64,000 bases of DNA. It comes from a virus. The stretch covers positions 1 through 64,000 of IMG/VR virus record IMGVR_UViG_3300037010_001275; one strand, 5' to 3'. Positions 10,216-63,701 of the stretch are shown piece after piece (position 1 is the stretch's first letter; each line of letters opens with the position of its first letter). The position numbers and the translations under genes were made by a program. The notes under the pieces were generated by a model. The model was not told the DNA's origin. It saw only the letters and a list, made by a program, of their open reading frames with translations, and ran no database searches.

Positions 10216-10330
10216 ATCTTCCTTTCCTTTTCATGAAATCTCTGTGATGGATTACCAAACTGTTCAGGTGGCTCATCGTGATGCGATCCGTAGGAGTAGC
10301 AGCGCATTTTGCGCCGCTACCCCCTGCCCT

Positions 10331-10966: not shown

Positions 10967-11107
10967 GCTGGCATCCTCAAAATTGGTTACTGAAAGCGCA
11001 ATGCTGTAACGCTTTCAAACCTATTATATATTAATGACGGGTGCGTAAAAATTCATCAACTCAATATTAATTCACCTATCGGAGACCGCCATCTGGCGGA
11101 AAAAGTA

Positions 11108-15461: not shown

Positions 15462-15577
15462 GCATTCGCTCCTGCTCCGCGCTTCAAATATTTATTAATA
15501 ATATTATATATAAAAAGAACCGGAAGGTCCGAGAAACGTCTTAACAGCTTACATCAAGACGTTTCTATATTTGATTC

Positions 15578-24375: not shown

Positions 24376-24481
24376 GGATGTGATCCGAGGGAATCCTCGG
24401 ATCACCCCTTCTGGCAGAAAGTGCCTATGATAACAATGATATAGTTACTCTCTTGCACCGTTCTAACCAAAGGATTTAATT

Positions 24482-32453: not shown

Positions 32454-32504
32454 AGCTCTCCTTAAATGGGGTATCGAATTGTTCGATGGTGAACTCAGTA
32501 GCCT

Positions 32505-32879
32505 TCAGATGGAAATAGAAGCTGCGGAGTTGTAGTAGACATCTGACATATTATATATGCCCAACTTCCAAATCTCGCTGAGACAATGCTCTTGAATCCT
32601 TGTGATTGCCTTTTGGGAAAGCGGTTTATAGATGTTCTTGGAGAGTTTACATCAAAACTCGACGCGGTAGGTCACGGAGTCCGTCCGGGTCACAGAAACA
32701 GACTCGAAGAGCCTACTAGGGATTTTGAGCTCTGCATCACATTGTACAACGAAGTCCTTTATGAGTTTTTCGGTGTGGCTCAAAGTGAGCCTCCCTGCGC
32801 TTGCAATATGACTTTAGTGTATAAGGTCTGCAATCACATCCGACTTCGCGGACAAGAGTGACAACCCGTTTGATCCCAT
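32505..32879 (-). pseudogene. Possible decayed ORF with two in-frame stops
   Basis: 125 codons from ATG at 32879 reading in phage-like codons, interrupted by TAA and TGA. Confidence 0.3.
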
Positions 32880-34838: not shown

Positions 34839-35573
34839 ATGGTAAAGAAAAAGAAAGACCAGACAAAAGTTATTGATCAAGAAGTGGAGGAAGCCCAGTC
34901 GGAGCAACAAGGTACACCGCCATGGGAAGACCCACCGGCATCTATTGCCGTCGAGATTGACCAGATCGAGGCTCCCGACGACAACGTTGAGATTCTTGGG
35001 AAGAATCAGGAGTACTCGCTGACAATGTATCTCGACCCTGACGTTGAAGCGAAATTCTTCGTTCGCTTTATTAAGAAGGTCGAGCAACTGGTGCGATCTA
35101 ACCCCGATTACAAAGATTATATCACGCTCCTTCGCGATGAGATGGGCCTTGACACCTGTGCTTACCTCGGCAAGGTAGATGTCAACAAGGCTGAGATCCA
35201 GCTCCATCATTGCATCAGCAATCTTTACACGATCTGTGTCACAGTGTGCAACCGTCTGATGAAGACTGGCAAACAGGTGACAAGTTTCATCCTCGCCGAC
35301 GAGGTCGTCAGGCTCCACATGAACGACAAGATCGCCCTTGTCCCGCTCACCACGACGATGCATGAGTTGGTCCACGCTGGAAAGATCAAGATCCCGAAGA
35401 ACGTCATTTTTGGGAACTACCATGAATACTTTGAGGAACATAAAGAGTACATGGATGAGTACGAGCTGAAGCTCTATGAGGATATCGAGGGCTTTGAAGT
35501 GCTCAATTCCAAGGAGATTTTAATGCTTACTACTCCGATCAAGGAAACCGAAACTAAGGAAGAAGAGTTATGA
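34839..35573 (+). CDS. Conserved jumbo-phage protein, His-rich HNH-like (paralogue A)
   Basis: IQLHH...LH...LVPLTTTMHELVH.G. Confidence 0.7.
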   Translation: MVKKKKDQTKVIDQEVEEAQSEQQGTPPWEDPPASIAVEIDQIEAPDDNVEILGKNQEYSLTMYLDPDVEAKFFVRFIKKVEQLVRSNPDYKDYITLLRDEMGLDTCAYLGKVDVNKAEIQLHHCISNLYTICVTVCNRLMKTGKQVTSFILADEVVRLHMNDKIALVPLTTTMHELVHAGKIKIPKNVIFGNYHEYFEEHKEYMDEYELKLYEDIEGFEVLNSKEILMLTTPIKETETKEEEL

Positions 35574-35854
35574 AATCCGTTCAAGCACTCGTAGAGGAGC
35601 TTCTCTATGAGAAAAAGATATCTAAGTTCGAGAAGCTTAAGCAGAACAAAGTAAAGCTAACTGACGAGGAGCGGTCGAAGGTCGCTGCTGCCAAGGCTGA
35701 GTGGAGTGATGGCCGTAGTGCTGTCTGGAAGTCCGTCTGCCCGAAAACTGGCAAAACCACTTACGTCACGCATACGCACCGCGCCTACCAGACTGCTGAT
35801 AGCGTCGAGGGAGCATGCAGCAAATTCCACAAGTTCATCAAGAGTACCGCATAG
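35570..35854 (+). CDS. Small basic protein
   Basis: ATGA overlap. Y.THTHRAYQ motif. Confidence 0.65.
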   Translation: MKSVQALVEELLYEKKISKFEKLKQNKVKLTDEERSKVAAAKAEWSDGRSAVWKSVCPKTGKTTYVTHTHRAYQTADSVEGACSKFHKFIKSTA

Positions 35855-35864
35855 GGAGACACCG

Positions 35865-36548
35865 ATGACCGGGAGAAAAGAGAAGCAGCCGCCGAAGGAG
35901 CGTGATCCCGGAGTACGCTCACTCTATGGGAAACCTGCGTTTTACGCGCTATATAATCTTGAGAACAACGAGAAAAATAAGAAGAAGTTTATCAAGAACG
36001 TAGAGAGCATGGTACGCTCCTCTCATGAGTACAGGAACTTTCTCACTTACCTCAAGCAGGAAGCCGAGCTAACGTATTGCGCCATCATGAACGGACTCGA
36101 TGCCGACGTTATGAAGGACATCTCGCTCGAGATTCACCACTACCCGTATACGCTGTATGACATCACGGAGGCCGTTCTCGATCGACATCTGATGAACAAC
36201 CTCGATTTCACCCGGCTCAGTATCGCCCACGAAGTCATGGGCCTGCACTTCTCGTTACAGGTCGGCCTCGTGCCGCTAACACTCACGATGCACCAGATGG
36301 CCCACACCGGAAATATTCTCATCGACATGGACCACGTTTTCGGCGATTACAAAAAGTTCTCGAAGGATTACGGGCTGTACTTGTCCGACGAGGCAAAGGG
36401 CCGATACATGCACTACTACCAGCGTACAAAGAACAAAGAGCTGATCAGACAGTTCAATACTGACAAGCTCACGATCAATCAAAAGCTCTTCCTGCTCCCG
36501 GAGCCGAAGGGCGAAAACAAGGATGAAGACGATGAAGAATCTTTTTAA
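35865..36548 (+). CDS. Conserved jumbo-phage protein, His-rich HNH-like (paralogue B)
   Basis: LEIHHYP...LH...GLVPLTLTMHQMAH.G. Start after GGGAG SD. Confidence 0.7.
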   Translation: MTGRKEKQPPKERDPGVRSLYGKPAFYALYNLENNEKNKKKFIKNVESMVRSSHEYRNFLTYLKQEAELTYCAIMNGLDADVMKDISLEIHHYPYTLYDITEAVLDRHLMNNLDFTRLSIAHEVMGLHFSLQVGLVPLTLTMHQMAHTGNILIDMDHVFGDYKKFSKDYGLYLSDEAKGRYMHYYQRTKNKELIRQFNTDKLTINQKLFLLPEPKGENKDEDDEESF

Positions 36549-38062: not shown

Positions 38063-38108
38063 ATATATAATACATACGAACACCGAGTCAATCATGGAAA
38101 TTATATAT
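38063..38108. promoter_or_regulatory. Face-to-face pair of ATATATAAT early-type promoters
   Basis: ATATATAAT on + at 38063-38071 and on - at 38100-38108. Confidence 0.6.
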
Positions 38109-38150
38109 ACGTCTTGGTATTTTAGAAGAGTTGAAAGGAGAAGTCCACTG

Positions 38151-38162
38151 AACACATTACTA
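38151..38162 (+). promoter_or_regulatory. AR9-type late promoter AACA-N6-TA (representative of ~14 sites)
   Basis: AACA CATTAC TA. See findings for the full list. Confidence 0.75.
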
Positions 38163-38219: not shown

Positions 38220-39572
38220 ATGCTAAATGTAAAACCGAGAGACATCCAGAGCGAGTTCAATGAGCTGGCGCTTGTGACCAACTACGAGGCACTCGACAAC
38301 GATTTCCGCTTCACGGCGGACGGCGTCTTCTCCGAGCGGATCTTCGGGTTCATGACGAACGGCGTCGATCATTCCTGTGAGTGTGGAAAGTTTCAGGGTT
38401 CGTTCAACCTTGGACACACCTGTGATGCGTGCGGTACGAAGGTGACGTTCAGGGGGTTACAGTTAGCGCGGGAAGGCTGGGTCGACTTGCGCTATCCAGC
38501 CCTACACCCAGTCTTCTTCCGCTATTTACGGAAGATCATCGGAGCGACGGCGCTGAATGACATCCTAAACTACAAGATGAAGATCAATGTCAATGGAACT
38601 CCGGTGGAAGTCCCAATGGAGGCACCTTTCAAGGGGATCGGGATGTTCCGTTTCATTGAAAACCTCGACGACATCGCCCAACATTTCCTCGACAAAAAGA
38701 AGGACCCAGCCAAGTGGCGTGACTGGCAGTTCTTTAAGGAAAACGAGGAGATAGCATACATCGACAAGTTCCCAATTATCAATAGCCGCCTTCGCCCCGG
38801 CAACGTCATTAACGGCGAGTTTCAGTTCGACGAGATCAACAACCTGTACAATGCGATCATCAGGAACTCGGAGACACTCGGCAGCTTCACGGATATCGAG
38901 GCGACCGAGTCGAACATTCTGACGTTGGTCTATAAAAACCAAATGCTCATCAACGAGATCTTCGACACGATCCTCGAAACCCTCTCGAACAAAGAAGGTT
39001 TCATTCGGAACAGTCTGATCGGTTCCCGACTGAACCTCTCAGCCAGGAATGTGATTACGCCACTGTCTGGCGAGTACAAGATGAACGACTGCGTCGTGCC
39101 CTATAAGACAGCGATGGAGCTCATGAAGCCACTAATCCTTCGCAAGTTGCAAAAGATCAAACGCGTCCCGATCCAGCAGGCGCAGAAGATTTGGTTCGAG
39201 GCTACCCTTACGTACAATAAGCTCGTCCATGCAGTGATGCGTGATATCGCCAAGAACGAGAACGTCAAGATTCTTCTGAACCGTAACCCGACCATCAACG
39301 TCGGATCGATCCTGTTGCTCAACATCGCTGACGTAAAAGGCGACATGAGCGATGTCACACTGAGTATCAGTAATCTTGTGTTGCCGTTGCTTGGTGCCGA
39401 CTACGATGGTGACGTGCTCAACATCGTTCTTGTTGTCTCGAAGCGGTTCGTCGAGATGTTTGCGCCCTTCCAGCCGTCGAATTTCGTAATCAACTGTGAC
39501 AGTGGCGACTTCAATGGCAGCTTTAAGCCCTTCAAGGATATCGAGGTCGGGCTGCAGTCACTCTTGAACTAA
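38220..39572 (+). CDS. Phage multisubunit RNA polymerase beta' N-terminal subunit (AR9 gp270-like)
   Basis: DGVFSERIFG, zinc-binding CECG...CDAC, G.R.N.SAR.VI.P, LNRNPT, catalytic GADYDGD. Confidence 0.93.
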   Translation: MLNVKPRDIQSEFNELALVTNYEALDNDFRFTADGVFSERIFGFMTNGVDHSCECGKFQGSFNLGHTCDACGTKVTFRGLQLAREGWVDLRYPALHPVFFRYLRKIIGATALNDILNYKMKINVNGTPVEVPMEAPFKGIGMFRFIENLDDIAQHFLDKKKDPAKWRDWQFFKENEEIAYIDKFPIINSRLRPGNVINGEFQFDEINNLYNAIIRNSETLGSFTDIEATESNILTLVYKNQMLINEIFDTILETLSNKEGFIRNSLIGSRLNLSARNVITPLSGEYKMNDCVVPYKTAMELMKPLILRKLQKIKRVPIQQAQKIWFEATLTYNKLVHAVMRDIAKNENVKILLNRNPTINVGSILLLNIADVKGDMSDVTLSISNLVLPLLGADYDGDVLNIVLVVSKRFVEMFAPFQPSNFVINCDSGDFNGSFKPFKDIEVGLQSLLN

Positions 39573-40248: not shown

Positions 40249-40327
40249 ATTGGTTCCTTTGAATATACCATCTATTATTAAGTTACATCGCCAACAACTA
40301 GTTAACGTAATTTGACGAGGAAAAACG

Positions 40328-41623
40328 ATGGCAAATCTGAAGGCCACCGTGTTCCCCACCGTCGGCTCGGGGGTGATGCTCGGAAGCATCACCGGGATTG
40401 TAAAGAACCACATCCTCTCTAAGCTGCCAAAGGGGTTCATCAAGTACACATACATCAAGAACTCCATCCCCTCCGTCACGGAGCAGATGAACAACGAGGA
40501 AGCAAACCTTGTGAAGGAGCGGCCCACTCTCTCAATAGGTCTCAACTACTCCTTTAATAATGACGCTGCGTCACAGGGCGACCAGTTCCAGTGGGGCATG
40601 AGCAAGATCCCAGTCGGCGTGTACATGTATGACTCGATCTACACGAAAATTTTCTACAACGAGCAGGACTGCATCTACCTCTCGACGATCGATGAGCGCA
40701 CAAAGCTTGTCTACGACGTGGCGATCCGCCTCGATTCTGAAACGCAAGCGTACAACCTGATGAACTACATGCGGGCGTACATTGGCGTAGGTCGCCCATA
40801 TTACCTGAGTCGGGTAAACATTGAGACCCCGATCCCTTTCGAGTGCCTCATTATGATCTCCGCCGGTAAGGGCTTTGATCTGAAGAGCCCGGTGGGCCGT
40901 CAGGCGTTCCATGAATACCTATCGAAGTGGTCCGGTGGGCGAGTCACCTACAAGAGGAACCTCTCTAGTGGGAACTACAACTACTTCCTGCTCTACAACG
41001 CCAACATCCTCTGCAAGATCCCCGACGCTCCGACGATTGAGAAGAATATGGAGGGTAAATCTGTTATAAATACAGACATGCGTCTCCAGCTTGAGGTCGA
41101 GTTCCCGACATTTACTAACTTCATTACCGAGCGTGAAGAGCTATCGCCGGTAGACGACGGAATGAAAGATATGGTCGACGACTCCAGCACTGCGGTTATC
41201 TACAATTTTACTTCTCAGATGCCGGTGATGCGGATGTTGGGGGAAAAGACGCTAGTCTCACACTTCGAGGTCGTGACGGGCCTTAATGAGACAGTTGATG
41301 AGACTTCCTTTGAGGAGGCGCTACAGCCACGCATCATGTTCTTCATCCAGCATCAAAAGCAGTACCTCGGCGCTGACCCGGATGCAATCAAGCGTCATAT
41401 AAAGATTAGCGTGATCCGCGACACGGAGCTGCTCGTGGAGGACCTGGATTACGAGGTCGATTGGGGAGGTTATACTGTGCGGATCCTCAACCCAATGCTG
41501 AATTACGTTTATCGCTTTGCATTCTACATAGATCTCGTGAAGTATAACCAGATCATGGAGGTTCACGACTCGCTCGGCCTGCGACAGTACGAGCAAGTCA
41601 ATAAGGTCAAAGAAATCCTTTGA
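40328..41623 (+). CDS. Probable virion structural protein
   Basis: 431-aa ORF behind a late promoter motif (40293). Confidence 0.6.
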   Translation: MANLKATVFPTVGSGVMLGSITGIVKNHILSKLPKGFIKYTYIKNSIPSVTEQMNNEEANLVKERPTLSIGLNYSFNNDAASQGDQFQWGMSKIPVGVYMYDSIYTKIFYNEQDCIYLSTIDERTKLVYDVAIRLDSETQAYNLMNYMRAYIGVGRPYYLSRVNIETPIPFECLIMISAGKGFDLKSPVGRQAFHEYLSKWSGGRVTYKRNLSSGNYNYFLLYNANILCKIPDAPTIEKNMEGKSVINTDMRLQLEVEFPTFTNFITEREELSPVDDGMKDMVDDSSTAVIYNFTSQMPVMRMLGEKTLVSHFEVVTGLNETVDETSFEEALQPRIMFFIQHQKQYLGADPDAIKRHIKISVIRDTELLVEDLDYEVDWGGYTVRILNPMLNYVYRFAFYIDLVKYNQIMEVHDSLGLRQYEQVNKVKEIL

Positions 41624-41679
41624 TTATATACCTAACAAATCTTTAGTTAATCTTTCCTGACCCTATAAAGGAAAAAGTC

Positions 41680-44340: not shown

Positions 44341-44452
44341 GATAATATGAACCGATGGGCCGATCAATGGTCTATCGGTTCATATTTATGCGGTACTAAG
44401 TGTTATTTTTAATGAGTAAACACCCAGTTAGATTAACAATTGCGAGGTTTCT

Positions 44453-47159: not shown

Positions 47160-47441
47160 TTAAATAATTAGATCTTCGATCATCTCAACCTGATCTGACT
47201 CGAGCGTAATACCAATCCCAGCGAAGAACGAACGAATCACCTGTGCAGCGTTGGTGATTGTGCGTTCTTCATCGTCGACCGGGTTGACGCTCTCGATGCG
47301 ATCCGGGTCCATACGCAGAAGCTTCTGCAGCAGAACGCGGCGCTCCTTATTGTGCGATGAATAGTGACGGAGGAAGTTGATGATACCCTTCGCGCCGTCC
47401 TCCTTATTTGCCAGCAGTAGCATGTTGAAGAGCTCTTGCTC
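47160..47441 (-). CDS. RNA polymerase beta C-terminal subunit, exon 2
   Basis: Begins GAG CAA GAG (EQE), completing the conserved RFGE(M/Q)E motif after splicing. Confidence 0.9.
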   Translation of the reverse strand, partial: EQELFNMLLLANKEDGAKGIINFLRHYSSHNKERRVLLQKLLRMDPDRIESVNPVDDEERTITNAAQVIRSFFAGIGITLESDQVEMIEDLII

Positions 47442-48083
47442 CATATGTGTTCAGAAGTGTTCGCTACACACTCCCCGGATAATAAATCCAGCTGCATGTC
47501 ACCATGCAGATCAGACTATATCTTCTCTCCTTTATCGGAGAGCTCCCTATTTCCATCGCCAATGGCTTGCGATGTACTCTACTTGATTCCGCTATTACTA
47601 GCGTTCTTTCGATAGTCGTTGAACGTTCCACTGACACTTACCACGAATAATTAATTGATATATGTTTCCAAGTTTTTCTTTGCTGGATATTCCGCACTGT
47701 TTACTCTGATAATTCCATCAGATTCATATCCTGTTGGGTATTATTCACAGTCTTCCAGCAACCAGCTTATTACAGATCTCGTGAACCTGCTTTTCTGTTG
47801 GAAGTACATTTTTGCATGCCGCGCCTCTTGGTCTTAAATTTATATCAACTACGTGCTATAAAAATTCTTAGTAGGCATAACCCACTCCAAGTTGGATACT
47901 TCATTGCATCGTTTGATGTCATTGATGTGATTCACTTGGTAAGAATCGTCAAATATAATTCGTGATTTGTTTAGCTAAAGGCTATCTCCATTTCTGTGGT
48001 GAGCCAGTGGCTTCGCTGCTGATTGTCTCAAAGAGAGTTTCCAGCAGTTAAAGGAGTTTTACTTCGGCAGGCAATGAACTTTT
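47442..48083 (-). ncRNA. Group I self-splicing intron (642 nt)
   Basis: 5' exon ends in U. P1 TTCGGT/GCCGAA with U.G pair. P AACTGCTGGAAA (48049-48038), Q AATCAGCAG (48024-48016), R GTTCAACGACTA (47624-47613), S AAGATATAGTC (47524-47514). Terminal G at 47442. Confidence 0.93.
47638..47960 (-). pseudogene. Decayed HNH homing endonuclease in the intron P6 loop
   Basis: Fragments QVNHINDIKRCNEVSNLEWV, TEKQVHEICNKL and TVRNIQQRKTWKHIS, broken by stops and frameshifts. No N-terminus. Confidence 0.85.
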
Positions 48084-49814
48084 ACCGAATCGGATTGGAC
48101 TGTTGTTGTACGGTGCGGTGCCCTTCTTGTACATCTCATTTGACTTAAATGGGGCGTTCAGCAGACTTACCTGACCGGCGGATCGAGCAGAGAACTTGCC
48201 GATAGCCTCATGACGAAGCTTGATGAAGTACATGGATCCAAGAACGAGCGGCTGCTCGATCCCGATGAACTTCAACTTTTTCACGCCGAACCTGTCGTAC
48301 AGCTTTAGCATCTTGACTGGGTCAGCGTTCTCGAAGAAGGGCGGCTGATGGATTAACAAGCCGTCTTCACGCACACTCCGCACGAACTCAGAGATGGCCT
48401 TGACGTCGCCATCAAGGGTTGCCTTCAAGTAGTCCGCTTGTCCGCTACCGAGGATATTGAAAAAGTCCAAGATATCATCATACAGCGCGATGTTACCTTC
48501 CTTGTCATCTGGATGCCTCTTGACAATCTGGTCGGCGATAAACGTCAGCTCATGTTCATACAGCTGCGCCACGTTCATGCGCCCGACAACGCCTAGCGGG
48601 TTCAGTACGACATCCGGGATGTCACCATCCTCGGTTCGGGGCATTTGGTCATCGGGCAGGATCTTCGAAATCACCCCCTTGTTGCCGTAACGTCCAGTGA
48701 TCTTTGATCCCACTTTCAGCGGGACGGTCTCGCGGATCTTAAAGCGCAGGATTGTTCCCTCAAACTCGCTCTTATCGTAGCTGAACTTCTTACCACAGAG
48801 GTAATCCGTCGCCTTTTGCAGCAGGAAGCCACAGTTGTCGCGGAGTGTCATCCCCTCATCTCGGAAGTATTCGATAATCTCCTTGATCTCTGTGAATAAC
48901 TCCTTTCGGGTTTTCAGCAGGGCTGCGATCGGCGCGTTGTGGGGCTGCGCCAGCTCGTCATCCGACAGGTTGGAGAAGACCTCGATCGACTCGACCACAC
49001 CATTAAAGAAGAAGAGCGTATCATTAACGTAATCGATCTGGCGGTCATTCTCCTTAAAGTCTGTCAGGACTGTCGAGTAGCTGATCCGGCGACGGGCGCA
49101 CAGAATGCCATCCTTGACGTACTCACCGATTTCCGGAAAAGGTTTGTATTCGTTCCGAGTGCCATACATGTTGACCAGAACATCGTTATTGTTGAGGGAT
49201 ACCACGGCCTCGTGGACGGCGGTATGTGAGAGCTTCTTTGCCCCGCTCTCACTTATGATGATACCATCCTCAAACGTCAGGCCGTCCTTTGCGATGAAGG
49301 CTGCCTTCAGGTTGACGCCATAGCGCAGATTCAGGTTGTCATCGTACATCGGGTTACGAGCAAGGAGCGTTCCCTCGGGAAGGTCCGTACCAGGTTCGAC
49401 ATCCGGGAGCTTGTACTCGTTTAAGAAACCATACGACTCAGTAAGCCGTACACACGAATTGTACGTCACAACGTCAACCGACCCGTCCTCATAACTGAAA
49501 AACAAGTATCGCTCGTTATCACCGTACTTGACTTCACCAAGGAGCTGCGCAGGTGCTTTCAGAGAGGTATAACCCATCCCCTGTGAGAACTTTCCAACCT
49601 GATTCTCGAAGCGAGTAAACACCCTCGGGATTTCAGCGTTGTTCAGCGTGAGGAACTGCGCGACGTGTGAGATGAACATGTTAAGACGACCACCGTCGCA
49701 CTTGTTCACATTCGGGGTGAGTAGGTCCTCCCCAAGGAAATAGTGTTTCGGACGGCCATCCTCACGGATAAACTTACTCGCCACCACGGTTTTCTTAGCC
49801 TTCTTTTCCTTCAT
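48084..49814 (-). CDS. RNA polymerase beta C-terminal subunit (AR9 gp089-like), exon 1
   Basis: EDGIIISES, GSKITGRYGNKGVISKI, PDVVLNPLGV..RMN..QL.E, Y.IKL.H...K.SAR. Spliced product about 670 aa. Confidence 0.93.
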
Positions 49815-53906: not shown

Positions 53907-54929
53907 TTACTTGAGTTTGAATGTCTTCGGAAGGATCAGTTCTTTCCTGACTCCGAAATCCTTCTGACCCTCGTATCGGTTGTAGACCACTCGGATCCTA
54001 TTATACCGCCACTCGGGGAGAATGAACTTATAATCATCGAGGTTGATATCATTGTCGCTATATAGCGACAAGTTGATGTTGAGGAAGCCCATCTTCATGA
54101 GCATGAGCGGGAACAGGTTGAAGCCCTTCCCATTGATCGCGCAAAATACCCGGTTTCGCAATCTCTCTCCATTGAAGAAGTTGCGGTGGATGGAGAGCAC
54201 GTCGAAGAAGCCCTCCGTCATCACAACCTCGATCTCTGGGGCCATCAGGTCCAGCTCTGACCTAATCGTGAAGACCTTACTCCCCTCTCCGTAGGGGTTG
54301 AGGTTTATGGTCTTGAATCGCTTCTTGAAATCGCCAGCGATGAAGCGAAAGCTGGCATGGGAGCTGTCCCGCGATAGCCAACCGAGACCGAACTTATCGA
54401 CCAGCCAGCAGTCCTTTGAGAACTTGTCGTCGTCCAGCATATGGTCAAGCTTATTCAGAATTAGAAAGTCCTCCAGCGAACCAATGACGCGGTACCGCAG
54501 TAGGTCCTCCTTACGGAGGGTGAACCCGAGCCGGTCCTCCATATACTCGAGTTTCTCCTTGAAGCGGCCCTTCAAGTCGTACTTTGGGAACTTCGGATTC
54601 CGGACCTTCAGATAAGCAAGGCTAGAGCTGTGTATCGTCGTGTTGCGCTTGAACTTCTTGATCTCCCGGTGGAACTCCATCGAAAGCTCGTCGTCGTGGA
54701 CGCCGATGTCCTCAAGCACGTTGTCGCCCACAATCCCCGATGCCTCGCACCGCTGACAGAAGAACTTGAAGGGTGGGTCACATGAAATATAGAGGTGCGC
54801 GTGCGATCTGTCTTTCGATGAATCGCCGCAGTAAGGACAACGACAACTCATCTCTGTATTGTTGCTGTTCAAGTACGCTACACGGCCCTCCGCTCGGAGG
54901 GCCTTGTAGAGGTCGTCTACAAGAGACAT
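53907..54929 (-). CDS. DNA primase (zinc finger plus Toprim)
   Basis: CPYCGDS...CQRC, TEGFFD, YSDND, KDFG. Confidence 0.85.
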   Translation of the reverse strand: MSLVDDLYKALRAEGRVAYLNSNNTEMSCRCPYCGDSSKDRSHAHLYISCDPPFKFFCQRCEASGIVGDNVLEDIGVHDDELSMEFHREIKKFKRNTTIHSSSLAYLKVRNPKFPKYDLKGRFKEKLEYMEDRLGFTLRKEDLLRYRVIGSLEDFLILNKLDHMLDDDKFSKDCWLVDKFGLGWLSRDSSHASFRFIAGDFKKRFKTINLNPYGEGSKVFTIRSELDLMAPEIEVVMTEGFFDVLSIHRNFFNGERLRNRVFCAINGKGFNLFPLMLMKMGFLNINLSLYSDNDINLDDYKFILPEWRYNRIRVVYNRYEGQKDFGVRKELILPKTFKLK

Positions 54930-54949: not shown

Positions 54950-56440
54950 TTAGTAACGCTCCAAGAAAGATAATATATCCTGGATAATCGTTCTCTGGTT
55001 GGCCTCAGTATCAACGTGCGGCTGTAAGTCCTCCTCGTTCTCGTCAAACGGATTGACACAGGTGAAGTCGGTATTCATGATGTCACCGATAAAGCTGACG
55101 AGCATCTTGTTTTCCGCGAGCTTAGCCTTCACGAGTGGGAAACGGCTCAGCAGGTTGCGGTATGACCGCGACTGTATGACTTCGCCGACCAGCTTGCCCC
55201 GTTTGAAGTTCTTCTGGTTCTCCTTCGGGGCGACATCAGCTGAGATCATGCCTGCGAGGCACTTAAACCCTTTGTCCAGCAGGAACCTCCGTGTGATCAT
55301 CAGGAGCCAGATATACTCCTCCCGGTTGCACAGCTGAATGTTCAACTTGTCCTTACTGTTGACATAGTAGTTGATGATCTTCATCTGCACCATGTTGGGA
55401 GAGATGACCTCCATAAAGTGATCGTGCTCCTCTTCGGAAAAGTAGATCTTGTAACGGTCGATGAAGCTCCGGATTGCTTCCTTCTCGATGATGTAATTCA
55501 TCTCATTAGCGCTGACCAGCCGCATCTCCATCCGCGTGAACGGGTTCACGCTGTTCTCGGTTCCCTCGGTACGAATCTGCGAGATCGGCTTAAAGGTGAT
55601 CTTGATGTTCTGGATAAAAGTGTAGTTGATTTGGCCTTTGATCACGACATGTAGAAAGGACACCACCGACCTGTTGACATCGAGCTTCGGGATCGTGTCA
55701 CGAACGATCTTGCGGAACAGGTCGAGTGCGAGGATCGGTGCGGAGACCGTGATGTTTTTAAGGTACTCCCAAATCACCTTGTCGCTGTATAGTGTGTTCT
55801 CGACGTTGCTGGTAATGAACCGCTGAATCTTACCTGGCAGGTCGACATCATCGCCGTTCTCATCGATGCTGAAGACCTTGAAGATCTCGGTGAAGACCCT
55901 GATTGTGAGGTCCTGCTCCTTTTTCATATCCATCCGCTCCATGTAGAGACAGATGAGCGGAACGACGAGACGACACATGTACGATACACAGATCAGCAAC
56001 TTGGCGTAAGAGTCCTTGAATTGGAGTTCCTCTTCACCACGCTGTGTCTCGATTGAGATCGTGTACTGGCTGTCTACGTAGTCCCGAATGAAGTGCTGTA
56101 GGGTTTCATTGGTAATGATCTCATTCGTGATAATACCAATGAGTTTCTGCTCACTCGCATCACGGTTGTCGATGTTACCTTCTTCACCCTCCTGATCGCA
56201 GATATGCTCAATGCCCTCGATCAGAAGGCGGGAGTGGAGGTAGCTCTCGATGAAGTCCGGGTACTCTCGAAAGACGTGCTTGAGGTCCTCGACGATGCGC
56301 TCCATAATGCTCTGGTAGACGCGTTTCTTATACAGCGGGAAGAAGTTGTGGGTCATGTCATCGTCCATGTCGAAGAGATCATGGAACCGAATATTGAACC
56401 CCTTCTGTTCAATTTCAAAAAGTTTGTTGACGTGTGCCAT
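54950..56440 (-). CDS. Sigma-like promoter-specificity subunit of nvRNAP (AR9 gp226-like)
   Basis: Blocks ELQ..D, TLYSDKVIWEYLKN and PKL..N.SVVSFLHVVIK match recalled AR9 gp226 (TKYSDVVIWTYLKN, PKLKHNSSVISYLDVVIK). Lies two genes from a chaperonin, like gp226/gp228. Confidence 0.8.
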   Translation of the reverse strand: MAHVNKLFEIEQKGFNIRFHDLFDMDDDMTHNFFPLYKKRVYQSIMERIVEDLKHVFREYPDFIESYLHSRLLIEGIEHICDQEGEEGNIDNRDASEQKLIGIITNEIITNETLQHFIRDYVDSQYTISIETQRGEEELQFKDSYAKLLICVSYMCRLVVPLICLYMERMDMKKEQDLTIRVFTEIFKVFSIDENGDDVDLPGKIQRFITSNVENTLYSDKVIWEYLKNITVSAPILALDLFRKIVRDTIPKLDVNRSVVSFLHVVIKGQINYTFIQNIKITFKPISQIRTEGTENSVNPFTRMEMRLVSANEMNYIIEKEAIRSFIDRYKIYFSEEEHDHFMEVISPNMVQMKIINYYVNSKDKLNIQLCNREEYIWLLMITRRFLLDKGFKCLAGMISADVAPKENQKNFKRGKLVGEVIQSRSYRNLLSRFPLVKAKLAENKMLVSFIGDIMNTDFTCVNPFDENEEDLQPHVDTEANQRTIIQDILSFLERY

Positions 56441-56454
56441 TTACTCCCCTTCTG

Positions 56455-57186
56455 TCAATGTTTCTTGGAAGACGATGGCTTCGCCATCGTCGCCGCTCTG
56501 CGGGTTTGCTTTTGCTTGGCTAACTCTCCAGCCCTGGCTGCTTTCGCCGCTTTCTTTTCCTGCTCTTTCTTCTTGGACTGCAGGGACTTCTTGATGGCAT
56601 AGTCGCGTTCAATGTCTTCGAATTCGTGGATCTCTTTTTTGATTGAGACCTTATTCGAGACGTGCAGAATCGGGCCATAGTTCTCGCGCAGGAATAGACG
56701 GTGTTCTTGAATGTAGTAGATCGCGTAAACGATTGACTTCTCGTAGTTTACTGTCTCGTCCGGGTTACGCCGTTTCGGAGGTTCTGACAAGACCTCTTTT
56801 GGGAGCAACGACCTCAAATAGTCGATCAGGAGGCCGCGCTGGTTCATCACGTAGGCATACGTGTACACAAAAGCGAAGTTGTTGCTAAAGACCTTGATGT
56901 TTTTAGTGAGCATGGATGTTTCCATGCCCCCGACGTCCATAAATTCAATGCAGACGTCATAGCGTACTCCCTCCACACTCTCAGAGGGAATGCGGATGTG
57001 CAGCACCACCGAGTCGGAAACGCGGTATGCCGAAGTTTTGAAGTGGTGGTTCGCCTTCAGCAGCGCCCTGTACTTCGCGAACAGGGTGTCGAGGATGGCC
57101 TTCCTTTGTGGGGTAGAAGCCGCGCCGGCCCCAACCGGGTTCTTGAGATACGACTGAATGGTATACTGATAGCTAGTCTCGTTCAT
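56455..57186 (-). CDS. Conserved jumbo-phage hypothetical protein
   Basis: NPVG.G, IPSE....RYDV..EF, FSN..AF.YTYAY, P..RNP. Confidence 0.7.
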   Translation of the reverse strand: MNETSYQYTIQSYLKNPVGAGAASTPQRKAILDTLFAKYRALLKANHHFKTSAYRVSDSVVLHIRIPSESVEGVRYDVCIEFMDVGGMETSMLTKNIKVFSNNFAFVYTYAYVMNQRGLLIDYLRSLLPKEVLSEPPKRRNPDETVNYEKSIVYAIYYIQEHRLFLRENYGPILHVSNKVSIKKEIHEFEDIERDYAIKKSLQSKKKEQEKKAAKAARAGELAKQKQTRRAATMAKPSSSKKH

Positions 57187-57300
57187 ATTGCGTGTCTCTC
57201 GATGCGTGAGCTCGCCATTTTATCACGTCCCTCTCCTTTTTGCAAATGAAAAAGAGTAGACGACTCCTGTGATTGGAGAAGTCTACTCTTTTATCATATA

Positions 57301-58998
57301 TCAACAGCTTACGAATTGGTTGATGCTGATCAGCATACCCATGATGGACACTGACGCCTTGAGGATCTGGATATCGGTGTCGATTGGAGCGAGCACGGTA
57401 GTCTCATCAAGGTTTTCGAATGCTCCGGTTATCACGTTGAAGATCCGATCAGTCTCCTCGATGATTTCGTCACGCATCTTCTCTCCGCGCCAGTCGTATT
57501 CAGGCGACTTAGTCATGATGCAGAAGTAGGTGTCGAAGTAGACGCGACGAAGCTGGAGGAAGATTGTTTTCACGAACTCCTTGCTGAACTGATTGAAGAC
57601 GTAGTCTCCTTCCCAAATGGTATCGAAGCGGTTGCAGAGACGAGTCATCGCGAAGTACAGGTTGACATTACCGCCAAATCCGTAGCCCTTTGCAAGGGCT
57701 GACTTACAGGCCAGCACAGCGTCTTCGACGAGGAAGCGGCGTGCCTTCTTCTCTTCCTCGGTAATGCCACCGACAAGGATCTTCACGGAGACGCCAGATA
57801 GCTTCGAGAGGCGCAGGCGGATTGCGCCGCGCTTCGAAGGCAGGTTGTTCGGCGTCTCATCATACTCCTTCTCAAGCTGCTGAACACGCTCATTGTAGAA
57901 GTCAGTGCCGCGAACCATGCCATCGCCGGACATAAACACGGTCTTTGTACCAAAAAACTCGACCGACTTGCAGGCTCCGAGCTGCTCTGGCTTGAAGGTA
58001 TTCGGGTCACGGATGATGTCAGAGTCAAGGTAGATCGCCGCGTCAAGAAACTCGTCGTGGTAAGCTTCAAGTGACATATCACCGGCGCGGATTAGAAGGA
58101 TCTTGTTGTTACCCTTTAGGAAATCAGACAAACACTCATTGACGGTGTCCTCGTGGGTCTGCTCCACGATTGCCACAATAGCGCGGTCCGGGTTGGCCTT
58201 CTGGATCTCCTTCAGGTTTTCATAGTGCGGCGGGAAGAACTCGTAGCTCATGTATACAAGCGGCTCCTTCACTGCCAGCGTCGAACGACCGACCTGATTG
58301 AAGTACAGGTTGTGGATCGGACCGCGATCGAAGGTGAATCCGTAGCGGATGCTGTGGGTCAGCGGGACGCTGGAGTCGCGGGGATCCTCCTCGATCCTGA
58401 CGTCGGAGAGGAAGTTGAGCTTCTGAAAGATGCCAGCAATGTAATCGCCGATCTTCAAGTCGTTGTTGTTGGAGATGCTGGCGATCGACGTCAGCACACG
58501 CTGCTTGTTGTTGCCGTCGATTTTACGGGCATTGCTCTCAAGATCATCGACAAGATAACCAACGATCCGCTCAAGGATATCAACCAGCTGCTTACGGCTG
58601 CACATGCCTGAGTTACGGAGCGGAGCAAGGTACTCGTACATGAACGATGCTGAAAGCACGGCGCTCGTGGAGCCATCGCCGACGGTTTTGACGAGATTAT
58701 ACGAAACCCGCTTGATCAAGTCATGCAGCGCTTTGTCCTGCGAGTTAGTGAAGCGCAGGTTCTCGAGAATGGTGTAACCGTCCTTTGTGACGGTCGGGGT
58801 TGAGCCGAGTCGCTCGATTAGCGTGTTGGATCCGAGCGGACCATAGCTCTTGGCGAGGACGCCGCAAAGCGCTGCAAGGAACTTGACGGTGTCATTGTAG
58901 AATTGCTGGTCGTCCTTGACAATCCCCTCGAAACGGCTAAGCTCCTCCGTCATTACGATCTCATCGGCTTTTTTCTTTTTGAAAAGATTCTTCAACAT
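57301..58998 (-). CDS. groEL: Phage GroEL-like chaperonin
   Basis: YGP.G, VTKDG.TI, VGDGSTSA, SNND..IG, EDAV.A..SA...G...GG. Confidence 0.9.
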   Translation of the reverse strand: MLKNLFKKKKADEIVMTEELSRFEGIVKDDQQFYNDTVKFLAALCGVLAKSYGPLGSNTLIERLGSTPTVTKDGYTILENLRFTNSQDKALHDLIKRVSYNLVKTVGDGSTSAVLSASFMYEYLAPLRNSGMCSRKQLVDILERIVGYLVDDLESNARKIDGNNKQRVLTSIASISNNNDLKIGDYIAGIFQKLNFLSDVRIEEDPRDSSVPLTHSIRYGFTFDRGPIHNLYFNQVGRSTLAVKEPLVYMSYEFFPPHYENLKEIQKANPDRAIVAIVEQTHEDTVNECLSDFLKGNNKILLIRAGDMSLEAYHDEFLDAAIYLDSDIIRDPNTFKPEQLGACKSVEFFGTKTVFMSGDGMVRGTDFYNERVQQLEKEYDETPNNLPSKRGAIRLRLSKLSGVSVKILVGGITEEEKKARRFLVEDAVLACKSALAKGYGFGGNVNLYFAMTRLCNRFDTIWEGDYVFNQFSKEFVKTIFLQLRRVYFDTYFCIMTKSPEYDWRGEKMRDEIIEETDRIFNVITGAFENLDETTVLAPIDTDIQILKASVSIMGMLISINQFVSC

Positions 58999-59022: not shown

Positions 59023-59305
59023 CTATTTCTTTTTCTGAGCGGTAGCGGCCTGCGACTTGATTCGCTCCATCTCCCGCTCCTCGATTTTCCTCTTGTCTTC
59101 GAGAAACTTCGCCCGACCATTGTACAGGTCAGTTAGCAAGGGAAGCTCGATCGTCATAACGTCTTCAAGGGTTAGCTGGCCTTTGAAGATGTCCAGTGTC
59201 GCTGCGATCTGGTACATAACCTGATCGAGCGACCGTTGGACTACGTTACCGGGGCGAATCTCGATGAGCTTAATCAGGCCCTTACCATACTTAGAAAAAG
59301 GGTTT
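59023..59305 (-). CDS. Small chaperone partner ORF, probably reached by -1 frameshift
   Basis: Frame is open from AAC CCT TTT (59305) through the ATG at 59217 to the stop. Confidence 0.65.
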
Positions 59306-60455
59306 CAGTCATGTCGACCACGATGTTCTTAATCTCAGCACCGCAGTGACGGCAGATGGCGTCGGGCAACTTGTATTCGACCTTGTATTTGTCCATCTTC
59401 TCTTTGATTGCCTTGTCGAGGAACTTGCGATCCTCTGATGGGATATCGACGATGGCGCGTAGCTTGTCCTCGATAGTCTCAAGCTGGATGTACTCGACAT
59501 CACCCTGCGCGAAAGCGTGGATGTGCGGGATGTATAGCTCTTCGACGTACTTCAAGTACGTAAAGATCTCTGGCTCGTAGCCCTTGAAGGACTCAGCACG
59601 CTGCAGGGACTTCAGGTAGTCGTGCAGAGTCGGAGTGCCAATATCGGCGATGATCTTAGTCTGCGGTAGGATCACGCGATCCTTCATATTGACCACGGAG
59701 TGCTTAACCAGTTCCTCGGGTGTGTAGTTCTTGGACAGGATGTCCTGAATGTACGCACCAGTGGCGGCCTCGTCCTTGGCCTGAATCAGCAGTTCCTTGG
59801 AAATGCGGGCCTTGTTCTCCTTACCGCACTTTGGACAGGAAACATCATAGTCAGTCTCGTTCGGAAAGGTAGCGCAGTAGATGCCATAGATTAGGGTCTC
59901 GAAGTCGTTTTCAGCAGTAACCTTCAGCCAGTCATCGAAGCGGATCTTGCCGAGTGAGCCATTGACCATGTGTGTATAGACGAAGTTGAAGAGCTTCATG
60001 TTCTGCTCTTTTTCCGTCCCGGTGAACTTACGCACCTTAATCATGTCGTCGTTGTTCAGCGACCGGAACGCGGCACGATAACCGGACTGCAGTGCGATAA
60101 CGTCGTAGGAAGGCTTCAGAAACAGGGTCTCGAGCTCTTGGAAGACGCCGAGTGGGTTGGGGCTTTTGACGATTTTGATCTTACTCAGATCGACCTGAAC
60201 GTTGCTCAGGACCTTGTCACGCAGTGCCTCGCGAGAGACAGTATCGGCTTGCGGAGCCTCGGTGGCGGGCTGAACAACAGTTTCGTTCTGCTGGAGCTCG
60301 CCAGCTTCGTCGCGGGTAACTTGGGACGATGCCGTGGTTGAAGTGGTCTGTTCAACAGCGGCATTGGCGACCTCGGCGGGGCTTTGCTCAGGTTGCTGAG
60401 TCTGCCCGTTGATCATCTTGCTGAGATCTTCCATAGAGTTGATTTCCATTGCCAT
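59274..60455 (-). CDS. Baseplate hub / tail assembly chaperone (T4 gp26-like)
   Basis: CPKCG and CRHCG pairs, PTL.D. Adjacent to a gp25-like gene. Confidence 0.65.
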   Translation of the reverse strand: MAMEINSMEDLSKMINGQTQQPEQSPAEVANAAVEQTTSTTASSQVTRDEAGELQQNETVVQPATEAPQADTVSREALRDKVLSNVQVDLSKIKIVKSPNPLGVFQELETLFLKPSYDVIALQSGYRAAFRSLNNDDMIKVRKFTGTEKEQNMKLFNFVYTHMVNGSLGKIRFDDWLKVTAENDFETLIYGIYCATFPNETDYDVSCPKCGKENKARISKELLIQAKDEAATGAYIQDILSKNYTPEELVKHSVVNMKDRVILPQTKIIADIGTPTLHDYLKSLQRAESFKGYEPEIFTYLKYVEELYIPHIHAFAQGDVEYIQLETIEDKLRAIVDIPSEDRKFLDKAIKEKMDKYKVEYKLPDAICRHCGAEIKNIVVDMTETLFLSMVRA

Positions 60456-60613
60456 GTGCTTATCCTTTCGTGATTGGAAACGGTAATGTGACGGATGAAT
60501 GTCAGGGACTAAAGCGCTGTTTCACCTTTGAGCACTAGCAAAACTTCGGGCTGTAACTGGAACCTTGAACGCGAAGAAAACACCCTAAGCCCGAAAGGAG
60601 CTTAGGGTGTCTC

Positions 60614-62758: not shown

Positions 62759-62905
62759 AACTTTTCCTATGATTAACGATCATGACGTTAGCACCGAGAT
62801 CTTCCATACTACTATTTTGTTACATAATGTAATTGGAAAACATAAGAATAATTCTAAGGATTTTGATGATAGATCCTTCCAACAGTTTCCAATCGAGGTT
62901 TCATC

Positions 62906-63355
62906 ATGATTACAGTATTGCTCAAGAACTGGAAGCTTGGCTTCTTCACGGTGCTCATACTTCTCGTGGCATTCTTTGCTTACCAATGGAAGTCTGCCAA
63001 GGCTGAGATTGCCGAACAAGCAGTCGTTCTCAACCGAAAGATATCGACCCTAGAAGAGACGCTGGCCCACAACCAAGACCAACTCAAGAAGGCTGAAGAA
63101 ATCAATGAAGAATATGAGCGGAACGCCGAAGCTCAGAAAGTAATCGAAAAAGCTAACACTGAGGCCAAAGACCGACTCAGTGTGAAGACTGGAAAGGTCG
63201 ACCGTACCAAGGCAGAGCTCACACAGGAGTCCTATTCTCAGATCCCCGAGAATCGGGTACTCTCCGCCGAGAGCGTGAACATTATGATCAAGCTCATAGA
63301 GACAGTCGATCCTCTGCTGCCCGTCGAATCTAATTCTAACGTCTCACAGGGATAA
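62906..63355 (+). CDS. Inner-membrane spanin (Rz-like)
   Basis: Single N-terminal TM helix followed by a coiled coil. Confidence 0.7.
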   Translation: MITVLLKNWKLGFFTVLILLVAFFAYQWKSAKAEIAEQAVVLNRKISTLEETLAHNQDQLKKAEEINEEYERNAEAQKVIEKANTEAKDRLSVKTGKVDRTKAELTQESYSQIPENRVLSAESVNIMIKLIETVDPLLPVESNSNVSQG

Positions 63356-63359
63356 GACC

Positions 63360-63701
63360 ATGAAAAAACTTATTATCATCATTACGGTGGCCCTTTCCCT
63401 CGTCGGCTGCGCCACAAACGGTGGAACCACTGTCGAGCGTGTTGACGTTAACATGACATCACGCAAGTTGCAGTTTGTCGAGTTGGATGAGGATATTCTC
63501 GCTGCCTGCAAGCAACCGCGCCCAATGGCCGAGCGTTTGCCTAGCCGCACTACCGGAAAGATCAAGGAGTCTGAGGTCGTGGCCGCTCTCGTGGAATCCT
63601 ACACGAACGAAGTAAACTGCTTCCTCGCGACAAGGGAGCTGTTCCGTCTGCAACGCGATGTTAAGTCCAAGCTTGAGAGTTCCTCCAATGACAACAAGTA
63701 A
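63360..63701 (+). CDS. Outer-membrane spanin lipoprotein (Rz1-like)
   Basis: Lipobox LVGC, then C..P and a later C, immediately after the i-spanin. Confidence 0.72.
   Translation: MKKLIIIITVALSLVGCATNGGTTVERVDVNMTSRKLQFVELDEDILAACKQPRPMAERLPSRTTGKIKESEVVAALVESYTNEVNCFLATRELFRLQRDVKSKLESSSNDNK

Follow-up and report, generated by a model that had tools for sequence, protein, structure and literature searches.

An uncultured phage with balanced G+C content encodes a gp226-type RNA polymerase subunit with a predicted uracil-selective pocket and probably has deoxyuridine in its DNA

The question raised by positions 1 to 64,000 of the virus record IMGVR_UViG_3300037010_001275 (this whole stretch is referred to below as the window) is whether a phage with a genome of about half G+C uses a transcription apparatus that reads deoxyuridine (dU) instead of thymidine (dT), and whether its DNA contains dU. 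The gene in question is an open reading frame (ORF) of 496 amino acids, at 54950-56440 on the minus strand, which carries the motif TLYSDKVIWEYLKN. An earlier note on this DNA, made from the letters, had proposed that the ORF encodes a counterpart of gp226, the sigma-like subunit that gives the non-virion RNA polymerase (nvRNAP) of phage AR9 its promoter specificity. Two alternatives were offered in it: either the phage has dU-DNA, or its subunit reads T in spite of a conserved valine. The ORF and its motif are present as described. We conclude that the ORF is a true, full-length orthologue of AR9 gp226 and of g245 from Yersinia phage phiR1-37, and we consider it probable that the DNA of this phage has dU in place of dT. 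The case for dU is made by three independent kinds of evidence: the residues of the uracil pocket, the pathway genes found, without ThyA, in a complete related genome, and a gradient in the use of palindromes on the contig itself. The window is the start of a 94,984-bp viral contig with a CheckV completeness of 37%. The G+C content is 49.5% for the 95-kb contig and 0.476-0.523 per 4-kb block in the window, so the "roughly half" of the earlier note holds. The complete relative, referred to as G001, is an IMG/VR genome of 263,413 bp with direct terminal repeats, a CheckV completeness of 100% and 55.2% G+C; its gp226 homologue is 51% identical to the protein from the contig.

To identify the protein, its sequence was compared with all PDB chains using phmmer. 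AR9 gp226 was the sole match (7S01_A/7UM0/7UM1, E 2.8e-36), and the alignment with 7S01_A paired residues 8-459 of the query, or 91% of the protein, with residues 10-438 of the chain. The ORF also matched PHROG 25005, annotated as 'RNA polymerase' (E 1.3e-44), while no Pfam model exists for the gp226-like family. An AlphaFold model, calculated from an input alignment of 19 sequences, had a mean predicted local distance difference test (pLDDT) score of 78.2. When the model was submitted to Foldseek, 7S01_A was returned at the top (E 4.3e-17), followed by 7UM0_A, both with a probability of 1.0. The template modelling (TM) score between the model and the gp226 structures was only 0.46-0.49, because the two domains differ in orientation. 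Subunit gp68 of phage phiKZ (8QUE_B) ranked after the gp226 structures (E 4e-6, 12% identity). The match to gp226 anticipated in the earlier note was found, therefore, both by sequence and by structure. The protein almost certainly works in the same mode as gp226 and g245.

In AR9, the 2.1bis helix of gp226 and the betaN subunit gp105 enclose the uracil at template position -10, and Val206 of gp226 keeps the C5 methyl of a thymine out of this position. The distance from the C-beta of V206 to C5 of this uracil is 3.9 A, the V206G enzyme takes T, and none of the 12 homologues known by then deviated from valine (Fraser et al. 2022, PMC9209446). In the HMMER alignment, the motif block of the contig protein was aligned with AR9 tKYSDVVIWTYLKN at maximal posterior probability, and a residue count through this alignment placed V222, I223, W224, Y226 and S261 opposite gp226 V206, I207, W208, Y210 and S245, respectively. 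A helix is present at residues 218-228 of the AlphaFold model. Sequence alignment and fold thus agree that codon 55775-55777 specifies the equivalent of Val206 and that the flanking Ile, Trp and Tyr are kept. The facts about AR9 given in the earlier note (the KYSDVVIWTY motif, and a Val206 pocket that accepts dU and excludes dT) agree with the 7S01_A alignment and with PMC9209446. Across the clade to which the contig protein belongs, residues Y218, S219, D220, W224 and L227 are invariant in 19 of 19 members; at the position of Val222, valine is found in 16 sequences, isoleucine in three and a small residue in none. We infer U-selective binding by the gp226-like protein.

Taken together with what is known about AR9, the following mode of action can be proposed. 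The phage would have a split multisubunit RNA polymerase like those of AR9 and phiR1-37, with this protein as its fifth, sigma-like subunit, docked on an nvRNAP core whose betaC and beta'N subunits are encoded in the window and whose betaN and beta'C subunits would be encoded elsewhere in the genome. Late promoters would be read through the template strand of a -10-like element (non-template 5'-AACA-N6-TA, template 3'-UUGU), the flipped -10 base entering a pocket that the 2.1bis-type helix (Y218-L227) makes together with betaN. The beta-branched Val222 would leave no space for a C5 methyl, which would make this an enzyme built for deoxyuridine, and the dU itself would be made by the phiR1-37 route, from a dCTP deaminase (Dcd) and a Ham1-type dTTP pyrophosphatase (Dtt).

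To see how strictly the valine is kept, a family profile was searched against 1.84 billion cluster representatives. The gp226 family comprised 412 representatives at E<=1e-3 and 151 at E<=1e-30, far exceeding the 12 homologues of 2022. The residue at the Val206 position was tallied in the best 150 family representatives plus reference proteins: V was found in 102 and I in 12, while about 50 (~30%) had other residues (K 9, T 9, P 5, R 5, A 4, G 4, as well as S, M and others). The adjacent Trp was kept in 164 of 168 sequences, and since it is nearly invariant, the Val206 column is well anchored. In a tree of the family, the contig protein lies in a block of about 31 leaves, phiR1-37 included, every one of which has V or I. 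The residue can therefore vary in the family, yet stays beta-branched throughout this clade, and its retention suggests selection. All variants with a residue other than V or I are metagenomic, and none occurs in a cultured phage. These variants (proteins within P0020-P0166) may be natural T-reading or otherwise re-specified forms. Four representatives have G at this position and resemble the engineered T-tolerant V206G; natural G, A and S variants may mark repeated changes from one of the two genome types, dU and T, to the other in a single polymerase lineage. That a Val222 subunit nevertheless reads thymidine DNA, or DNA with a C5-substituted pyrimidine, seems to us very unlikely; if it did, Val206 would be insufficient for U selectivity outside AR9, and the AR9 rule would not be general.

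The chemistry of the DNA was approached through restriction sites. Restriction enzymes cut dU-containing DNA at GC-only recognition sites; a single T in the site confers partial resistance, and two T confer full resistance (Li et al. 2025, PMC12697855). The ratio of observed to expected occurrences was calculated for each of the 64 six-base palindromes with a maximal-order Markov expectation, and the palindromes were binned by the number of T per strand (Table 1).

Table 1. Observed/expected ratios of six-base palindromes, binned by T per strand
Genome	Status	0 T	1 T	2 T	3 T
This contig	clade	0.13 (13/104)	0.82	0.97	0.96
Window alone	clade	0.12	0.79	0.91	1.00
G002	clade	0.02	0.66	0.80	0.99
G001	clade, complete	0.13	0.70	0.87	1.26
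AR9	dU proven	0.14	0.41	0.98	0.93
phiR1-37	dU proven	0.00	0.67	0.97	0.95
DSS3_VP1 (47.5% G+C)	dU proven	0.05	0.40	0.82	0.96
Ea35-70	T-DNA control	0.93	0.94	0.98	0.96
RSL1	T-DNA control	0.72	0.82	0.79	0.66
PhiPA3	T-DNA control	0.83	0.89	0.96	0.92
201phi2-1	T-DNA control	0.73	0.85	0.98	1.00

The deficit of GC-only palindromes on the contig is highly significant (13 observed versus 104 expected, Poisson p 3e-29). It is specific to palindromes: GC-only non-palindromic hexamers had a ratio of 1.04, with 0 of 54 below 0.25, whereas all eight GC-only palindromes were at or below 0.39 (Mann-Whitney p 3e-6 against the non-palindromic hexamers). Strong depletion was seen at six of eight GC-only sites on the contig, seven of seven in the clade member G002 and seven of eight in G001, versus none or one of eight in the controls with ordinary thymidine DNA (T-DNA). 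Of the 32 sites with two or three T, none was strongly depleted in any clade member. The gradient on the contig reproduces the restriction measured for dU-DNA (PMC12697855). Given the deep divergence of the three clade genomes, each lineage must maintain the pattern.

It could be argued that the GC-only depletion and the conserved valine are unrelated coincidences, the former being due to a host with many GC-specific restriction systems, in which case nothing about the chemistry could be inferred. High-GC hosts do tend toward GC-rich recognition sites, RSL1, a phage of high-GC Ralstonia, is mildly depleted at 0.72, and the negative controls number four. Against such a coincidence, nearly all GC-only sites are depleted together, the depletion falls off stepwise as T count rises, the same profile recurs in three dU phages that are unrelated and come from hosts differing widely in G+C, and the depletion coincides with a gene set that includes Dcd and Dtt and no ThyA. 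We regard this explanation as highly improbable.

That gene set was found in G001. In phiR1-37, dU is produced by Dcd (g103), a dCTP-specific enzyme with a dCMP-deaminase fold, and Dtt (g100), a dTTP pyrophosphatase of the Ham1 family (PMC12697855). G001 keeps the phiR1-37 gene order, which is virion RNA polymerase (vRNAP)-beta, Dtt, a structural protein, an RNA polymerase subunit and Dcd. Its Dcd-like protein matches PF00383 (7.2e-19), as do those of phiR1-37 and AR9, and the Dtt slot is filled by a 343-amino-acid long-form Ham1 protein (L018:2521-3552, minus strand; PF01725 8e-20), which is 26% identical to phiR1-37 g100 over 293 amino acids. Long-form Ham1 proteins (300-346 amino acids, with a central insertion, Dtt-like) form a small metagenomic family consisting of P0168-P0175 and the G001 protein; the family could mark dU pathways of the phiR1-37 type. 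When the G001 Dtt and the neighboring RNA polymerase gene were used as queries against viral contigs, only G001 itself was returned. A metagenome scan with a Dtt alignment yielded mostly distant, ordinary Ham1 proteins and one clade-like contig of 2.5 kb. A look for the 222-kb contig of P0010 in the viral collection gave no match.

ThyA, ThyX, dUTPase and uracil-DNA glycosylase (UDG) were found neither in G001 nor on the contig (37% of the genome), in G002, AR9 or phiR1-37; the absence of thymidylate synthase and dUTPase, which the earlier note had named as something to look for, thus extends to a complete genome. UDG (PF03167) had no match in any clade member, and DSS3_VP1 has no ThyA. A ThyX candidate in G001 (13.4 bits) was rejected as an antisense shadow frame of a real gene. 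ThyA was present in four of the four T-DNA jumbo phage controls (Ea35-70, RSL1, PhiPA3 and 201phi2-1). The dUTPase domain PF00692 was present in none of the four, and dU phages are also without it; being missing from both groups, dUTPase does not discriminate between them.

Both the gradient and the gene set bear on another possibility, that thymidine is replaced by something else or only in part (dU mixed with dT, or a non-canonical pyrimidine other than dU), that this protects T-containing sites, and that the subunit reads the base in question. The palindrome signature indeed shows relief at T-containing sites, not the identity of a base. Pathways to 5-hydroxymethyl-dU and hypermodified T, however, begin with a hydroxymethylase of the ThyA family, and a PF00303 homologue is absent from the complete G001 and from the contig. 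The enzymes predicted in G001 correspond to the dU pair of phiR1-37, and Val222 would leave no more room for another C5 substituent than for a methyl (PMC9209446). We consider a replacement of this kind unlikely.

A number of observations weigh against dU in this phage. In the AlphaFold model, the pLDDT of the 2.1bis helix is about 58-64, a modest confidence for the element that forms the predicted pocket. No match to PF00383 (Dcd) was obtained on the contig (~37% of the genome) or in G002, and Dtt was not found on the contig; the pathway was seen only in G001, a relative whose gp226 homologue is 51% identical. The search for a deaminase, a hydrolase and Ugi suggested in the earlier note yielded candidates for the first two in G001 and for none of the three on the contig, where no AR9 Ugi homologue was detected; UDG inhibitors are too diverse to be recognized or excluded by sequence. 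A sigma-70-type scan near the gp226-like gene revealed only weak consensus matches of doubtful meaning, and no promoter of its own was found for the gene. Nextera library preparation failed on dU-DNA (PMC8323127), while the contig is covered at a mean word depth of at least about 30 in one run and was found in three. The palindrome statistic is a proxy devised here and not an established criterion, calibrated on three positive and four negative controls; in principle, the restriction enzymes of a high-GC host, or a different modification of thymidine, might also account for GC-only depletion. A link of V/I to dU is tentative: in the viral contig collection, no contig was found for the G-type proteins P0105 and P0113 or the A-type P0046, and P0043 yielded only a contig of 13.9 kb.

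Some of the same observations speak for ordinary thymidine DNA, in which case the subunit, a true gp226 orthologue, would read template T at -10 and -11 through an altered pocket geometry, despite a Val222 inherited with no selection for U. The contig assembled well from standard metagenomes, though dU-DNA can resist some library preparations, it is devoid of Dcd and Dtt, and at 49.5% G+C it is unlike the AT-rich cultured dU jumbo phages. In addition, betaN K375 is R in the clade: betaN itself had no match on the 95-kb contig, and in G001 betaN, R363 is retained and K375 is changed to R. However, the latter change is shared with phiR1-37, a proven dU phage. The gradient with T count is kept in relatives whose gp226 homologues are 51-67% identical and is absent from the four T-DNA controls, G001 has Dcd and Dtt in the phiR1-37 order and neither ThyA nor ThyX, and the valine position, which varies elsewhere in the family, is kept as V/I in the clade. 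An explanation by thymidine DNA thus appears to us quite improbable. Of the two alternatives in the earlier note, dU-DNA is favored by the palindrome gradient and by the presence of Dcd and Dtt without ThyA in G001, and stays at the strength of a probable reading. The tension that the note saw between dU and a half-G+C genome is not real, since DSS3_VP1 is proven dU at 47.5% G+C.

Relatives of the gp226-like protein in metagenomes are 31-91% identical to it. Contigs with such relatives have 51-56% G+C. The clade as a whole has a G+C content of 50-56%, and its closest cultured phage is phiR1-37. Megablast of the locus against GenBank phages gave no match. At the protein level, 21 GenBank records contain a gp226-type subunit, all from AT-rich phages of Bacillus, Staphylococcus, Listeria and Yersinia, and the best match among them is phiR1-37 g245 (29.9% identity over 92% of the protein, E 3e-58). 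A literature search found no paper on GC-balanced AR9- or phiR1-37-like phages. DNA of the contig is present in microbial-mat and sediment metagenomes, with three runs holding most of the stretch. At the gp226-like gene, two strains co-occur in the public runs X1-X3, one identical to the contig and the other about 90% identical to it and matching P0001 at 91%; the differences are nearly all transitions and have no bearing on dU. No tRNAs were found in G001, which therefore gives no clue to the host from this source. The G+C content of Bacillus subtilis is about 43.5%, that of Yersinia enterocolitica about 47% and that of Ruegeria pomeroyi about 64%; with these host values, the three proven dU phages appear to lie some 15-17 G+C points below their hosts. 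The same offset would place the hosts of the clade at about 65-70% G+C.

Promoters were searched for with no preset motif, by ranking all 4096 patterns of a 4-mer, N6 and a 2-mer in sense-strand upstream regions. AACA-N6-TA ranked first on the contig (17 observed versus ~3.3 expected, z 7.5) and first in G001 (31 observed versus 5.8 expected, z 10.4), and was also enriched in AR9 and phiR1-37. On the contig, 16 of 36 occurrences are intergenic and no more than 150 nucleotides (nt) upstream of a gene on the same strand, although non-coding DNA makes up only ~12%; most intergenic sites are 30-70 nt from the start codon. AR9-type promoters, which the earlier note had reported, are in this way recovered by an unbiased ranking. 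AT-only runs with a ATTATATAT core, which resemble the early promoter of the AR9 virion RNA polymerase, ATATATATTAT, were intergenic in eight of eight cases on the contig. Together, the two kinds of motif indicate that both AR9 promoter classes appear conserved in a genome of 50% G+C. Individual sites are listed in Table 2.

The surroundings of the gp226-like gene are those known from phiR1-37 and AR9. Homologues of 34 of 101 contig ORFs are found in phiR1-37 and of 29 in AR9, and the order GroEL, structural protein, gp226, primase is common to the contig and both phages. The PHROG 20045 gene immediately upstream has a homologue in the equivalent place in both phages; the one in phiR1-37, g244, encodes a structural protein. 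The gp226-like gene begins 14 nt past the end of this ORF and has a Shine-Dalgarno sequence; the spacing makes co-transcription of the pair probable. Between the GroEL-like gene and this pair, at ~57245-57290 (minus strand), there is a hairpin with a T-run behind it, which resembles an intrinsic terminator or a site of processing. In phiR1-37, an annotated promoter and a stem-loop are located directly upstream of g245, after g244.

Genes for nvRNAP beta and beta' subunits, another claim of the earlier note, are both in the window, as betaC (match to 7S00_C) and beta'N (match to 7S01_d). The betaC gene is interrupted by an insertion that is probably a group I intron: its match to RF00028 lies below the gathering score of 50, no Rfam family matched in the window at gathering thresholds, and the exon junction was set by tblastn against the uninterrupted betaC of G001. 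The claimed spanin pair is present in the form of two adjacent candidates, one with a transmembrane segment and a coiled coil, the other with a lipobox; they plausibly are a spanin pair, which would point to a diderm host. Other genes in the window encode an NAD-dependent ligase, two topoisomerase II subunits, a Dda-like helicase, a UvsX-like recombinase, RNase H and tail proteins. The ORFs 34839-35573 and 35709-36548 (plus strand) are adjacent PHROG 12252 paralogues that match one and the same gene of AR9; two copies are likewise found in phiR1-37.

Table 2. Features of the window, with positions counted from its first nucleotide
Feature	Position	Strand	Details
gp226-type promoter-specificity (sigma-like) nvRNAP subunit	54950-56440	-	496 amino acids; PDB, PHROG and Foldseek matches
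Residues 216-229, equivalent of the gp226 2.1bis helix (TLYSDKVIWEYLKN)	55754-55795	-	aligned to AR9 tKYSDVVIWTYLKN
GTG codon of Val222, equivalent of gp226 Val206	55775-55777	-	by alignment; context YSDKVIWEY
Conserved 243-amino-acid protein (PHROG 20045)	56455-57186	-	immediately upstream of the gp226-like gene
GroEL-like chaperonin	57301-58998	-	PHROG 5725, E 6.7e-83; PF00118
DNA primase, downstream neighbor	53907-54929	-	PHROG 19847, E 1.8e-78
nvRNAP beta' N-terminal subunit (AR9 gp270 type)	38220-39572	+	7S01_d, E 4.8e-68
nvRNAP betaC (AR9 gp089 type), first exon	48078-49814	-	ORF 48048-49814 against 7S00_C, E 1.9e-111; G001 betaC residues 28-589
Insertion of ~636 bp in betaC gene, putative group I intron	~47442-48077	-	RF00028, 30.5 bits, E 1e-5
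nvRNAP betaC, second exon	47160-47441	-	G001 betaC residues 588-662, 64% identity
i-spanin candidate	62906-63355	+	N-terminal transmembrane segment and coiled coil; weak PHROG 739 Rz-like match, E 2.3e-4
o-spanin candidate, lipoprotein, start MKKLIIIITVALSLVGC	63360-63701	+	LVGC lipobox; directly downstream of the i-spanin candidate
Putative late promoter AACA-N6-TA	38151-38162	+	69 nt upstream of beta'N gene; template 3'-UUGU-5' if dU-DNA
Putative late promoter AACA-N6-TA	62839-62850	+	67 nt upstream of i-spanin gene
Putative late promoter AACA-N6-TA	60510-60521	-	66 nt upstream of 59274-60455
Putative late promoter AACA-N6-TA	40293-40304	+	35 nt upstream of 40328-41623
Further AACA-N6-TA sites	1736-1747, 10253-10264, 32472-32483	-	
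Further AACA-N6-TA sites	24432-24443, 41634-41645, 44419-44430	+	
Early-promoter-like AT-only motifs ATATATAATA, AAATTATATATA	38063-38072, 38098-38109		upstream of beta'N gene, beside the late promoter
Other AT-only early-promoter-like motifs	11022-11035, 15486-15516, 32548-32558		

If the reading given here is correct, the uracil-reading transcription apparatus extends to an uncultured clade of 50-56% G+C, present in mats and sediments and having diderm hosts that would be of high G+C, and likely dU-DNA would accompany it. The earlier note went too far in calling either outcome new, since with phiR1-37 a jumbo phage that has dU and infects a Gram-negative host was known before. Specialists may find interest beyond the single gene in the family of 412 clusters, in the variation of the U-selective residue, which includes natural counterparts of V206G, and in the palindrome gradient. 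T-stratified palindrome depletion could flag thymidine-replaced genomes in metagenomes, where the sequence hides dU; the method needs wider validation.

Among known systems, one comparison is with phiKZ. Its gp68 (8QUE_B) is a distant structural relative with the same role, that of the fifth subunit of a split phage RNA polymerase, but has no useful sequence similarity and lacks the 2.1bis YSD-x-V-I-W motif; phiKZ-like phages also differ in having T-DNA, ThyA (PhiPA3, 201phi2-1) and no palindrome gradient. Roseophage DSS3_VP1 (Naomviridae) resembles the contig phage in its G+C content of 47.5%, its Gram-negative host, the absence of ThyA and the same gradient, with dU proven, but is an unrelated 75-kb podovirus that has an HD-family Dtm and neither a multisubunit RNA polymerase nor a gp226 homologue.

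With AR9/PBS1, the contig shares the fold and domain order of gp226, the residues Val206, Ile207, Trp208, Tyr210 and Ser245, the betaC and beta'N subunits of the split nvRNAP core, late promoters of the form AACA-N6-TA and AT-only motifs that resemble early promoters; group I introns, putative on the contig, interrupt phage genes in both. The differences are that the gp226 proteins are 28% identical, that AR9 has a Gram-positive host and 27.8% G+C, that it encodes an NT5C-like Dtm in place of a Ham1-type Dtt, as well as Ugi, of which no homologue was found on the contig, and that an early promoter lies directly upstream of AR9 gp226, whereas the contig gene abuts the upstream ORF.

The closest comparison is with phiR1-37. 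Here the motif is the same, including the V (SYSDQVIWRYLAN), as are the gene order, the enrichment of late promoters and the palindrome gradient, and the host of phiR1-37 is Gram-negative; with G001, phiR1-37 also shares the cluster of Dtt, structural protein, RNA polymerase subunit and Dcd, and betaN K375R. The two differ in protein sequence (~30% identity) and in G+C content (32.5% for phiR1-37 versus 49.5% for the contig), and the contig phage, from microbial mats and sediment, is uncultured and known only as sequence. We conclude that the finding adds a new, uncultured branch to a system already known, and does not amount to a system of a new kind.

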